From IMG/VR virus record IMGVR_UViG_2657244940_000015: a stretch of DNA of 4,079 nt; one strand, 5' to 3'. The stretch's first letter is position 1. Each line of letters opens with the position of its first letter. The notes under the pieces are model-generated. The model saw nothing but the letters and a program-made list of their open reading frames with translations, ran no database searches and had not been told where the DNA came from. The translations under genes and the position numbers were made by a program. The DNA is from a virus. Lineage: Duplodnaviria; Heunggongvirae; Uroviricota; Caudoviricetes. This document shows, one piece after another, positions 1-4,079 of the stretch.

Positions 1-2010
1 GATGGCGGTGGTCAGCAGGCGGCTGTTCTCATCGCTTCCACTGGTCAGGCGCAGACTGAAGCGCACGCCCTTCACCACCCTCGGCGTGTCCCATTTCGCC
101 AGCGCCAGATACTGGCTGTCAGCTGCGCTCACCTCCACCGTGAGGTGCTGTACTGCCGGTGGGATAACGCTGTTCAGGGTGCCTGACTGCGGCTCAAAGC
201 GGGCTCCGTTATCCACAATGGCTTCTTTTTCCGGTACGTGCTGCACCGCCGTGATGGCAAAGGTGCCGTCCGTGTTTTCCCGGATGGAGACACAGCGGAA
301 CAGGCGACGGCGCAGTGACGGCAGGGAGAGTCCCCACACCCCGTATGTCTCCACACCATCAGGCAGGGTACTGACCTGTATCCGGTCCGGCGCGGGGTGT
401 GCGGTGATGTCCACACTCACCGGCTTACCGCTGCCGTTAATCAGGTTCACCGCCGATGTACCTGTCTCCGGCAGGGTAACCTCACGGTCCAGCGTCAGGG
501 TGCGGGTGGCAGCATCAATGGACAGGATACGTCCGCCGGTCATAGTCCCGGCATAGTCGTTATCACAGATTTCAATAATGTCACCCGGTGTGTGACGCAG
601 CCCCTGTGACCCGAGCGTGAAGTCCACCGTCTGCGTTTCCAGCAGTTCGGTCTTTATCACCCACAGACCTGCACGGTGAGCCTGACCGCGGCTGGTACAG
701 CCAAACGCATCCATCTTCAGCAGATTGCGTCCGTAGCGCAGTATGGCTTCCGGGTCTTCCACCAGTTCCGTGTAGGTCTGCCAGCCGTTCTGCGGGTCGG
801 TGTAATTCACCTCCACCGCCGTGTGCCGGTCCTTCAGGGCACTGAAGCTGTAGCGGAACCCCACGCCGTTATCATCCACCACCACATCGCTGTTGGTGTA
901 CGGCCACACCACATCCGACGGGCGGTCCTGAACGAACGTCAGCGTCTGGCCGTTCCATACCGGCATACAGCGCATCGCCGAGCAGAAATCACTGAGAACG
1001 TCCCACGCCTTACGCTGTTGTGCCAGGTACGCATTAAAGGTCATCCGCGGCTCTGTGCCCCCGAAACCATCCGGGACCGTCTGGTCGCAGTACTGCCCGA
1101 TGGCATACAGCGCCCACTTGTCCACATCCGCCGCCCCCAGACGTTTTCCCATGCCGTAGCGCGGGTGAGTCAGCATGTCCCACAGACACCAGGCCGGATT
1201 GTTACTGTATGCCGGTTTCAGACTGCCGTCCCAGATACCACTGTACGTGCGTTTTTCCGGGTCATAGTTTGACGGCACCTGGATGATGCGACCGCGGATA
1301 TGGTAGTTCACCGTCATCTGCTGGCCGCCGAACTGCTCCGCATCCACCTGCAGCCCCACAATGGCCGTGTTCGGGTAGCACTGTTTCACATCGATAATTT
1401 CGGTGTATGACGACCAGAGCGTCTTATTCTGCAGCTGGTCCGTGGTGCTGTCCGCCGTCTCCCTGACCATCCGGATGTTAAAAGGACGGGGAGGCAGATT
1501 ATCCAGAATCACCGACGCCAGAAACTGCGAGGTGGTCTTGCCGTTAATGGTGACATCCTTTTCCGTCATCCATTTACCACCACGCTCAAGCTGAATCAGC
1601 AGGCGGACAGACGTCGGGTTACGGTCACCCTTTGACGTGGTCTGCACCAGTGACTGCACCCCGAAGGTCACCCGCAGGCGGTCAATGTTCGCGGACGTAA
1701 TGGTGCGCGTCACCGGTTTTGCCTTCGTCACTTCCACGCCCAGTACAGTTTCAGCTCCGGAGGACTCAAAGCCTTCCGGTGGTGTCTGCTCCTGCTCCCC
1801 GGCGCGCCAGACCGCCGTCACACCGTGTATCACGGGATTACCGTCCGTGTCCGTCAGCGGGGTTTTGTTCACCAGGATACTCTGCAGTCCCTTCACCGGG
1901 CCTTCTATCGGTCCCTCACCAACCGCATCAATCACGCTCATCATCTGCGTGGATTTGAGATTATCCTTCGCCTCACGAGGCGTGTGTGCCTTACCGCCAC
2001 CTTTTCCCAT
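1..2010 (-). CDS. J: Tail tip host-specificity protein J (lambda gpJ homolog), N-terminal 670 codons; 3' end lies beyond the left edge of the window
   Basis: Minus-strand ATG at 2010-2008 preceded by a purine-rich SD (GGGGAAGG). Translation begins MGKGGGKAHTPREAKDNLKSTQ..., closely matching the lambda gpJ N-terminus as I recall it. I scanned every codon in this frame from 2010 to 1 and found no stop (670 sense codons). It is absent from the supplied ORF track only because it has no in-window stop. Confidence 0.9.
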   Translation of the reverse strand, partial: MGKGGGKAHTPREAKDNLKSTQMMSVIDAVGEGPIEGPVKGLQSILVNKTPLTDTDGNPVIHGVTAVWRAGEQEQTPPEGFESSGAETVLGVEVTKAKPVTRTITSANIDRLRVTFGVQSLVQTTSKGDRNPTSVRLLIQLERGGKWMTEKDVTINGKTTSQFLASVILDNLPPRPFNIRMVRETADSTTDQLQNKTLWSSYTEIIDVKQCYPNTAIVGLQVDAEQFGGQQMTVNYHIRGRIIQVPSNYDPEKRTYSGIWDGSLKPAYSNNPAWCLWDMLTHPRYGMGKRLGAADVDKWALYAIGQYCDQTVPDGFGGTEPRMTFNAYLAQQRKAWDVLSDFCSAMRCMPVWNGQTLTFVQDRPSDVVWPYTNSDVVVDDNGVGFRYSFSALKDRHTAVEVNYTDPQNGWQTYTELVEDPEAILRYGRNLLKMDAFGCTSRGQAHRAGLWVIKTELLETQTVDFTLGSQGLRHTPGDIIEICDNDYAGTMTGGRILSIDAATRTLTLDREVTLPETGTSAVNLINGSGKPVSVDITAHPAPDRIQVSTLPDGVETYGVWGLSLPSLRRRLFRCVSIRENTDGTFAITAVQHVPEKEAIVDNGARFEPQSGTLNSVIPPAVQHLTVEVSAADSQYLALAKWDTPRVVKGVRFSLRLTSGSDENSRLLTTAI

Positions 2011-2113
2011 ACAGCCTTCCCCTGAATAAATTAACCGCCACTTGCCATTCCGTACAGAAGTCGGATATCCTTCGCCCGAAAAGCATGAAACACATTTCTG
2101 CCATGCTAAAGAG

Positions 2114-2148
2114 AAACCCCGGTATCAGCAGATACCGGGGTTTTCTTT
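2114..2148. terminator. Strong hairpin with U-rich tails on both strands (bidirectional intrinsic-terminator-like) in the I-J spacer
   Basis: Perfect 13-bp stem AAACCCCGGTATC (2114-2126) / GATACCGGGGTTT (2131-2143) with loop AGCA. Followed on plus by TCTTT and on minus by CTCTTT. Confidence 0.5.
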
Positions 2149-2213
2149 CATGTCCACCGATAATCCTGTTGGTAAAAACCGGTAATGGCATAAAAATTCT
2201 GAATATCTTCACA

Positions 2214-2243
2214 TTTTCACAAACTGACTGTGGCGCGTATAAT
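2214..2243 (+). promoter_or_regulatory. Sigma70-like promoter candidate (TTTTCA -N18- TATAAT), oriented antisense to the tail genes
   Basis: Perfect -10 hexamer TATAAT at 2238-2243 and a -35-like TTTTCA at 2214-2219 with 18-bp spacing, in an AT-rich stretch (about 2160-2300). Predicted TSS near 2250. Confidence 0.3.
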
Positions 2244-2310
2244 TTCGCTGCGTTAGTGTTTTTTTGCCCGAGTAACAAAAACAACTCCTTAACTCTAATC
2301 TTTGTCTGTC

Positions 2311-2345
2311 CCCGCAGCTCCGCGATCACTGCGGGATTTTTTTAT
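2311..2345 (+). terminator. Plus-strand rho-independent terminator candidate ending 6 bp from the I stop codon
   Basis: Stem CCCGCAG (2311-2317) / CTGCGGG (2329-2335) with an 11-nt loop, followed by A + TTTTTTT + ATT (2336-2346). On the minus strand the hairpin is followed by GACAGACAAAG, so it is plus-strand specific. Confidence 0.4.
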
Positions 2346-2350
2346 TCTTT

Positions 2351-3031
2351 TTACCCCTGCCGCCCGATAACCACGACCTTTCCGCACCCGCCTTCATCAC
2401 GGGTACTGATGTCCTGGGATATACGGCGGGAGCCAACCAGCATTTCCCCGTAAGGCACCGGCATCGGGTTACCCTGGGCAATCATGTTGTCCAGTGACGA
2501 AAAATACGTGTTCTGTCTGCCGTTATCCGTTGCGCGGTAATCCGGTGTTTTTGCCTTCGGGGCCAGCATCTGGGCCACACCACCCAGAATCATGCTGGCC
2601 CCCAGTGAAAACAGCATCGTGGTGGCAGAAAAACCGCCGGCACTCAGGGCTGTACCCCATAACGCCATCGAGGCACCGGCAGTGAGGAAAGAGCCCACGA
2701 TGGCTGCCGCCCCCAGCACAATCTGCAGTCCACCCTTTCCGGCCCCGGCCAGTCGCGGCACAATATGGATAACCGTTCCCTCACTCAGTGGTTCGTGAAG
2801 GCGGGCATACACCGCCTCCGGTGCCGTATCCTCACCGGCAATGCGTATCTGGTACCAGCCTTCGTTCATCTGACGGCGAAAGCCCGGCACCTGCATCGAC
2901 AGTGCGCGGATGGCTTCCGCTGCCGTGTTCACATACAGGCTGAGGCGGCGGCCAAATCGTTGTAAATCCCCGTGAAGGCAGATGCGTGCCAGTGGCGGTG
3001 ACGCCAGACAGAATGCGTTCGTCGTTGCCAT
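2351..3031 (-). CDS. I: Tail tip assembly protein I (lambda gpI homolog), 226 aa
   Basis: ORF from the track (MATTNAFCLASPPLARICLHGDLQRFGRRL...QGNPMPVPYGEMLVGSRRISQ...) resembles lambda gpI in length (223 aa in lambda) and sequence, including the hydrophobic Gly/Ala-rich central segment. SD-like GGGAGAGG lies about 11 nt upstream of the ATG. The start sits 103 bp inside the K reading frame, as in lambda. Confidence 0.88.
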   Translation of the reverse strand: MATTNAFCLASPPLARICLHGDLQRFGRRLSLYVNTAAEAIRALSMQVPGFRRQMNEGWYQIRIAGEDTAPEAVYARLHEPLSEGTVIHIVPRLAGAGKGGLQIVLGAAAIVGSFLTAGASMALWGTALSAGGFSATTMLFSLGASMILGGVAQMLAPKAKTPDYRATDNGRQNTYFSSLDNMIAQGNPMPVPYGEMLVGSRRISQDISTRDEGGCGKVVVIGRQG

Positions 3032-3918
3032 TTTTCGGAATACCTCTCCCGTTTACTCAGTTGTTCAGGCAGATGGTGAAGCAGTTCACCGTTGCCGCAG
3101 TAAATGGCGGCATGATTAGCCACCGATGCGCCGAAGCAGCACAGCAGGATATCGCCCGGCAGTGCAGAGGACAGGGGCACCCGGTAAAAGCCCGTTTCCT
3201 CCATATTGTCCAGGTAAAGGTTCTGACCGTTGCACCACCAGTCATCCTCACGGTGAAAATCCGGCATATCAATGCCTGCCAGATGGTATGCATCCCGGAA
3301 CAGCGTGTAACAGTCCGTCACCCCGTGCGCAAAGCGCCGTCCTGTCAGATGTGGCACACAGCGGAATTTGTGAATGTCACCCCGGCTGACCAGCCACCAG
3401 GGCAGTGCGCTTTTTATCTGCAGCCGCCGGTCAGCCTCGCTCAGCCAGGGCAGACCACCGGGATGACTGTGGACCAGTGCCACAATCTCCCCCTGCATCT
3501 CTGCCCGCAGCCAGTCTTCCGGTGCGATACGAAAATACGCCTCAGGCTCTGCAGAGATATTCACGCACGGCTGGTACTGGTTGCCCTCCGGCGTGCTTAT
3601 CACGAAGCCGCACGACTCCGCAGGCGCACACCGCCGGGCATGCGCCAGAATCGCTGATTCAGTCTGTGTCATGGGATTTACTGCGAAAGACTGCACGGCC
3701 CCATCAACGCGGGTGATGGCGTTAACCGGGCAGACCGTTGCGCAGGGTGCATCTTCACAGTGGTGACAGAGCTGCGGCGCAGATTCTTTTTCATTGAGCA
3801 TCACTCTCAGGCGCGGCATTGATTGCAGGCCGTGCTGGCGATGCGTCTCTGAACAGGCAGCCTCACAAGTGTGGCAGCCGATACAGAGCGTGGAGTCAGC
3901 AATTACAAAACGATTCAC
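2929..3918 (-). CDS. K: Chimeric ORF: N-terminal 82 aa HycB/HyfA-type 4Fe-4S ferredoxin fragment fused in frame to a full-length tail tip assembly protein K homolog (JAB/MPN + NlpC/P60). A K-only product could start at the internal ATG at 3672 (247 aa)
   Basis: 329-aa ORF with GTG start at 3918 and SD GAGGA 7 nt upstream. Residues 1-76 carry CIGCHTCEAAC (CxxCxxCxxxC) and CHHCEDAPCATVCP (CxxCxxxxCxxxCP). From residue 83 (MTQTESAILAHARRCAPAESCGF...) the protein matches lambda gpK, including the JAMM motif HSHPGGLPWLSEAD (HxHx7SxxD) and the NlpC/P60-type Cys in GVTDCYTLF. The internal ATG at 3672 has no obvious SD. Confidence 0.8.
   Translation of the reverse strand: MNRFVIADSTLCIGCHTCEAACSETHRQHGLQSMPRLRVMLNEKESAPQLCHHCEDAPCATVCPVNAITRVDGAVQSFAVNPMTQTESAILAHARRCAPAESCGFVISTPEGNQYQPCVNISAEPEAYFRIAPEDWLRAEMQGEIVALVHSHPGGLPWLSEADRRLQIKSALPWWLVSRGDIHKFRCVPHLTGRRFAHGVTDCYTLFRDAYHLAGIDMPDFHREDDWWCNGQNLYLDNMEETGFYRVPLSSALPGDILLCCFGASVANHAAIYCGNGELLHHLPEQLSKRERYSEKWQRRTHSVWRHRHWHASAFTGIYNDLAAASACM
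3673..3918 (-). pseudogene. hycB: 5' fragment (about 77-82 codons) of a formate-hydrogenlyase-type Fe-S subunit gene (HycB-like), truncated after the second Cys motif and fused to phage K
   Basis: MNRFVIADSTLCIGCHTCEAACSETHRQHGLQSMPRLRVMLNEKESAPQLCHHCEDAPCATVCPVNAITRVDGAVQ matches my recollection of the E. coli HycB N-terminus nearly residue for residue. Similarity ends at ...GAVQ, where an intact HycB would continue with further Cys motifs. The gene symbol is from memory and was not verified by search. Confidence 0.5.
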
Positions 3919-3990
3919 CAGGCATTCCTCAGGTGATTGTCATTTTTGACGAAAACATGCCGATGAAATGTCATTTTCGACACTCATCGA
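3919..3990 (-). promoter_or_regulatory. 5' leader of the chimeric ORF: SD plus two tandem palindromic operator-like sites (TGTCATTTTYGAC x2, 31 bp apart)
   Basis: SD GAGGA is the reverse complement of plus 3926-3930. Direct repeat of 13-mers at 3938-3950 (TGTCATTTTTGAC) and 3969-3981 (TGTCATTTTCGAC), each an inverted repeat GTC-N6-GAC (second copy TGTC-N6-GACA), spaced about three helical turns apart. Confidence 0.35.
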
Positions 3991-4079
3991 CACGCCCATC
4001 CCCAAACAGGCGTAACGCCTGCAAAACGGGCAAAGCCTCAGCTCATGCTGCCGGGCTTTGTCCCTTTACCAGTTGGCTT

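Follow-up and report, generated by a model that had tools for sequence, protein, structure and literature searches.

A reading frame joining hycB to the phage tail gene K rests on an accidental, non-recurrent junction in a draft contig

The HycB subunit of Escherichia coli formate hydrogenlyase binds four [4Fe-4S] clusters, B1-B4 (PMC9474812). The tail tip of bacteriophage lambda likewise has a natural [4Fe-4S] protein, gpL, and gpK, undetected in lambda virions, is thought to be non-structural (PMC10721106). The window analysed here is 4,079 bp long and is the entire contig CDRA01001286.1 of assembly GCA_000947375.1. It places part of hycB in one frame with a complete K homologue, an arrangement that the original prediction read as either a deletion scar inactivating hycB or an expressed Fe-S-tagged tail-tip protein. 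We find that the hycB-K junction is accidental and non-recurrent. The features of the window are as follows, each with the evidence for it.

1..2010, minus strand: tail tip/host specificity gene J, first 670 codons, open to the contig end (ORF and homology)
2011..2350, no strand assigned: conserved unannotated I-J spacer, 340 bp, outside the fusion (sequence comparison)
2351..3031, minus strand: tail assembly gene I, overlapping the 3' end of K (PF06805; 226 aa from ATG 3031)
2929..3672, minus strand: complete gpK homologue, 247 aa, Prok-JAB/MPN and NlpC/P60 domains, annotated as a C40 peptidase (Pfam and cluster)
2929..3918, minus strand: chimeric ORF, HycB 1-76, SFAVNP and K 1-247 (ORF listing, phase test)
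3678..3689, minus strand: remnant of the phage minor tail gene L, last three codons (L-S-Q) and TAA (alignments with sister phages)
3689..3690, no strand assigned: breakpoint, hycB ...GTGCAGT / CTTTCGCAG... phage (three-way alignment, sister phages, flank comparison)
3690..3918, minus strand: hycB nt 1-229, codons 1-76 and the first base of codon 77 (75/76 to 7Z0S_B)
3919..4042, minus strand: native hycA-hycB intergenic spacer with the hycB Shine-Dalgarno sequence GAGGAA at 3930-3925 (match to A42)
4043..4079, minus strand: last 37 nt of hycA, the formate hydrogenlyase regulator, at the contig end (match to E. coli A42)

One reading frame over two unrelated segments

The ORF listing of the window gives a single open reading frame at 2929..3918 on the minus strand, 329 codons from a GTG start, in which HycB residues 1-76 are followed by a six-residue linker, SFAVNP, and then by residues 1-247 of K. 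The linker consists of the 3' end of L and the L-K spacer, read in a different frame from that used by the phage. The assignment of the two modules to a HycB ferredoxin and gpK, fused in frame, is correct at both the DNA and the protein level, and the frame is uninterrupted as had been claimed, with eight cysteines in 76 residues arranged as motif I (CxxCxxCxxxC; Cys12/15/18/22) and motif II (CxxCxxxxCxxxCP; Cys51/54/59/63-Pro). In the Pfam search, Prok-JAB (PF14464) matched chimera residues 85-187 with 57.6 bits against a cutoff of 25, and NlpC/P60 (PF00877) matched residues 193-306 with 49.2 bits against a cutoff of 23. The Fer4 families gave marginal scores on residues 5-75, near or below their cutoffs, Fer4_6 lying just above its own (27.0 versus 25). 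The Shine-Dalgarno sequence lies 6 nt 5' of the GTG start, and inspection upstream of the K ATG (3672-3670) found no purine-rich stretch or Shine-Dalgarno sequence, both in agreement with the original prediction. The open frame across the join is unremarkable and carries no meaning, because a join can fall in three phases, of which one leaves hycB and K in register and gives the 329-codon ORF, while the remaining two run into stops after 79 and 85 codons.

On the host side, window positions 3690-4079 are 99.7% identical to E. coli A42, where hycA and hycB are annotated, with one mismatch in 390 nt, and this segment is single-copy in each of 5,426 complete E. coli genomes. Upstream of the hycB fragment lie hycA and the native spacer; downstream, phage K stands in place of hycC. 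Residues 1-76 are identical to residues 1-76 of PDB 7Z0S chain B at 75 positions (E=9.8e-46). Codon 61 (window 3736-3738) encodes Thr61 (CATVCP) and not the Val (CAVVCP) of the K-12 protein in PDB 7Z0S, and the Thr61 variant is also present in strain A42, the closest hyc match. Full-length HycB has 16 cysteines in four motifs, and the fragment in the chimera retains motifs I and II; motif III (C82/85/88/92) and motif IV (C143/146/155/159) are gone. In four-cluster ferredoxins of the FdnH/DmsB/PsrB/ArrB fold, motif I pairs with motif IV and motif II with motif III. With only I and II remaining, incomplete ligation is therefore predicted, such that no cluster of the fragment would keep all four of its native ligands.

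On the phage side, positions 1-3689 form a lambdoid tail module that is at most 97.3% identical to prophages in complete genomes and at most 98.7% identical to draft relatives, with up to 15 matching places per E. coli genome, and every phage match starts exactly at 3689. Past the 12 nt of L, I and then J follow K as expected; the rest of L and everything upstream of it are absent from the contig. The gpK homologue is 95% identical to P0002, the 247-aa representative of a 1,082-member K cluster, and the chimeric 329-aa protein was itself grouped in a cluster of ordinary 247-aa K proteins. In the protein search, all 247-aa relatives of K begin at the same ATG. The lack of a Shine-Dalgarno sequence before this ATG is native to all relatives, in which 5 or 10 nt separate the K ATG from the L stop upstream of it. 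The original proposal that translation begins upstream thus draws no evidence of an evolved upstream start from the bare K ATG, and stands in the sense that, if the junction is real, most K would be made as the chimera.

The L-K spacer (window 3673-3677) is dimorphic, reading ATCCC here and in the sister phages as against ATCCCGGTTT in the closest complete genomes. As the latter have an extra GGTTT before the K ATG, which would put K out of frame, we had suspected a second rare event; this was rejected when the variant without GGTTT proved common. The 15 records listed for a 45-nt query of that variant match it over its full length with 97.8% identity, identities of 95% or above were reached in more than 2,000 records, and the exact 24-mer of the variant occurs in 52 IMG/VR contigs.

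Further observations concern the remainder of the tail module. The start of gene I is ambiguous between ATG 3031, giving 226 aa and an overlap of about 100 nt with K, and GTG 2932, giving the 193 aa of public gene calls; the 226-aa form resembles the 223-aa gpI of lambda. The I-J spacer (2011-2350) recurs with about 97% conservation in PPompW-type prophages and two further Escherichia phage records, and some of the PPompW-type prophages that carry it are joined to Stx2a phages in one record. Its plus strand, antisense to the tail genes, carries at 2216-2243 a sigma-70-like promoter close to consensus (TTCACA-16-TATAAT); a hairpin and then T7 follow about 75 nt further on (2319-2335), and a perfect 14-bp hairpin lies at 2113-2144. 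The letters suggest a candidate plus-strand transcript at 2250-2346, which may be a CA-rich small RNA of about 95 nt or a moron. Its fold z-score is only -1.56, and an Rfam search of the spacer gave no match. The anti-sRNA AgvB was considered and rejected on the latter ground and because the AgvB/AsxR genes are located 3' of PR' (PMC4104026).

A different in-frame join was seen in three sister draft assemblies (CCCK01, CDRO01 and CDQW01), where a lysozyme (PF00959) is fused to L (PF05100) in a 345-aa frame directly upstream of K, after holin and DUF1327 genes.

L057:715-1752, L058:1796-2833 and L061:1387-2424: lysozyme-L fusion in the three sister draft assemblies

It has the appearance of a prophage deletion that extends from R to L. 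Coverage of this fusion stays below 80% in every complete E. coli genome, and in the O157-like strain SRCC 1675 lysozyme and L are adjacent, aligning as two pieces.

The breakpoint and its recurrence

A three-way alignment places the join between T3690 of hycB and C3689 of the phage, reading ...GGGGCCGTGCAGT / CTTTCGCAGTAAATCCCATG..., and the phage sequence starts three codons short of the L stop and continues with ATCCC and the K ATG as in the sister phages, to which the 89 nt aligned past the join are identical. Microhomology at 3690/3689 is 0 nt, the flanking bases differing on both sides. The alignments and flank comparison found no inserted or filler bases, IS end or att sequence at the join, nor is adapter or linker sequence present there. 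Within about 120 nt of the breakpoints, the flank comparison found no shared word longer than 8 nt. We rejected repeat-driven misassembly and homologous recombination, as the longest shared words are of 7-8 nt and lie away from the join. Phage integration, an IS join and specialised transduction were likewise rejected, given that att, int and IS are missing and that the breakpoint falls three codons before the L stop; the order of host DNA followed by K-I-J also differs in orientation from a lambda-dgal-type transducing genome.

These features leave a close to negligible probability that residues 1-82 belong naturally to K as an N-terminal extension, or that a phage integrated in hycB, or that an insertion sequence mediated the join. 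Nothing beyond the adjacency itself speaks for any of the three. The first, which the original prediction had named as grounds for abandoning its view, was checked and is not so, the K relatives all being 247 aa long and sharing one ATG. Against the other two, the breakpoint lies in the middle of a tail module and not at an att/int end, and both flanks are native up to the join, with no IS end.

We then looked at whether the fusion recurs, as had been suggested, and found it to be unique. With a 301-nt probe centred on the junction, no occurrence was found among 5,426 complete E. coli genomes, 50,697 phage records or 72,556 plasmid records, in each of which at most 50% of the probe was covered, and a 24-mer spanning the join was found 0 times in IMG/VR. 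The exact 329-aa protein is on record from one contig only, CDRA01001286.1. Among the best 120 of 721 protein matches at E<=1e-5, none had a Fer4 plus K architecture and none covered more than 81% of the chimeric query.

The contig number, 1286, sets the assembly at 1,286 contigs or more, and sister assemblies, recognised by neighbouring accession prefixes and an identical gpI, have contig numbers up to 2556; for 5-Mb genomes, such numbers indicate that these assemblies are very fragmented and very poor. Public assemblies also contain three singleton K proteins, P0016, P0017 and P0018 (347, 335 and 277 aa), with internal tandem duplications of K segments, which are probably misassemblies or recombinants among the near-identical prophage tail modules of E. 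coli.

Origin of the junction

From the anatomy of the junction and its uniqueness we infer that a chimeric contig is its most likely origin, with a probability of roughly 55%. Two unrelated DNA fragments would have been joined during library preparation or by the assembler, and the ORF would be an accidental read-through over one non-homologous join, from the hycA 3' end and hycB nt 229 to the last 12 nt of L, K, I and J'. The cell would then contain no chimeric gene, and both hycB and the L-K-I-J prophage of the strain would be ordinary. This origin is favoured because the draft assembly is very poor, because the terminal hyc segment of 390 bp is about the size of one long read or library fragment, and because a blunt, homology-free join accords with fragment ligation and excludes an event driven by repeats; the lack of a second sighting in the collections searched and the other singleton aberrant ORFs that the K region yields in public assemblies (P0016-P0018) argue in the same direction. 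Against it, graph assemblers normally break at chimeric links, where true continuations compete, and a real junction would produce just such an unbranched path over the join. The sequence is also clean on both flanks and free of adapter, and if the contigs average about 2-4 kb, an end at 390 bp is only mildly unusual.

The unbroken run of the contig through the junction and its two clean flanks would be expected of a real, strain-private rearrangement, an illegitimate (homology-free) deletion or inversion that joined hycB codon 76 to the end of L, which we hold to be a serious possibility at somewhat short of even odds. The original idea of a deletion scar that inactivates hycB falls under this reading. 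The intact Shine-Dalgarno sequence and GTG of hycB are in keeping with it, as is the 345-aa lysozyme-L fusion shared by three sister assemblies, since in-frame deletion decay does occur in this phage group. It is weakened by the single sighting in all collections searched, by the very low quality of the assembly and by the zero microhomology at the join, much illegitimate recombination in E. coli using a few bases of microhomology. Geography also counts against it: the phage records most closely related in the tail module are PPompW-type prophages, whose name refers to insertion at ompW, far from hyc. A simple deletion would thus have to span a large region, and the essential gene alaS lies about 30 kb downstream of hyc in K-12; an inversion would be needed instead. 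The reciprocal join of such an inversion would consist of L minus three codons followed by TGAATGAAAG..., with a TGA immediately after L minus three residues.

If the junction is real, hycB would be destroyed and hycC-I removed or uncoupled from the hyc promoter, leaving no formate hydrogenlyase and no H2 gas, and the prophage would be left without L and all the genes upstream of it on that side. The FhlA/sigma-54 hyc promoter sits upstream of hycA and thus outside the contig. With transcription from this promoter under fermentative conditions, the hycB Shine-Dalgarno sequence and GTG would yield HycB(1-76)-SFAVNP-K as a by-product, and the K-only product would be reduced because the K ATG has no Shine-Dalgarno sequence and is uncoupled from L. 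The expected outcome would be loss of formate hydrogenlyase, giving a gasless strain, and a further decayed prophage, which is ordinary genome decay.

An evolved and selected functional fusion, in which the tail-assembly peptidase K has gained an N-terminal Fe-S ferredoxin domain, is very improbable. The open frame, the undamaged state of both parts, the eight cysteines, the Fer4_6 score of 27.0 against 25 and the natural use of a [4Fe-4S] protein, gpL, in the tail tip (PMC10721106) are what could be said for it. However, it recurs in none of the collections searched, and its ferredoxin portion is hycB proper, still preceded by hycA and the native spacer with a nucleotide identity of 99.7%, which points to a recent event and not to an adapted domain. 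Only motifs I and II of HycB's four are retained. L, the natural Fe-S tip protein, is gone together with all upstream tail and head genes, and K is therefore left without its tail-assembly partners in cis. Finally, gpK was not detected in lambda virions (PMC10721106), hence there is no structural tail-tip protein to display a tag. The unique junction, the two of four cysteine motifs and the loss of L and upstream genes leave the proposed expressed Fe-S-tagged tail-tip protein unsupported. Exceedingly improbable, in turn, is an accidental redox-sensitive JAMM/NlpC-P60 peptidase, for which the junction would have to be real, the chimera would have to be made under fermentative, FhlA-activating conditions, and motifs I and II would have to pair non-natively and hold one or two [4Fe-4S] clusters.

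In the sense in which it was proposed, the hycB-K fusion is thus no real biological feature, nor does it represent a novel type of phage protein. An uninterrupted ORF of 329 codons with good support for both of its domain sets mimics a new domain architecture, yet here it rests on one breakpoint in a very fragmented draft contig, and it would be wrong to report the chimeric ORF as an 'Fe-S gpK'.

Comparison with known systems

With E. coli HycB (formate hydrogenlyase subunit 2; PDB 7Z0S/7Z0T chain B), the chimera shares residues 1-76 and, at the DNA level, the native hycA 3' end, spacer, Shine-Dalgarno sequence and GTG. In contrast to HycB, it is truncated past motif II and lacks motifs III and IV, which complete B1-B4, as well as the loop that contacts HycF and HycE, and hycC onward is absent. 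Residues 83-329 correspond to a full-length 247-aa K as in bacteriophage lambda gpK, with both Pfam domains above cutoff, and K is followed by the overlapping I and then by J as in lambda; the differences lie in the 82 foreign N-terminal residues and in the absence of L, M, H and other tail genes upstream.

Like HycB, lambda gpL is an Fe-S protein, and in intact phages it is encoded directly upstream of K (PMC10721106; L in L059). It is, however, unrelated to the ferredoxin fold, having four cysteines in a C-terminal domain, and only the last three L codons survive in this contig. Prophage-decay fusions such as the lysozyme-L ORF of the sister assemblies offer a parallel in form: there, too, two unrelated genes are joined in frame where a deletion has apparently occurred, within the same tail module. 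That ORF recurs in three assemblies and draws both of its genes from one prophage, whereas the hycB-K ORF has a single sighting and connects prophage DNA to an operon of the chromosome.
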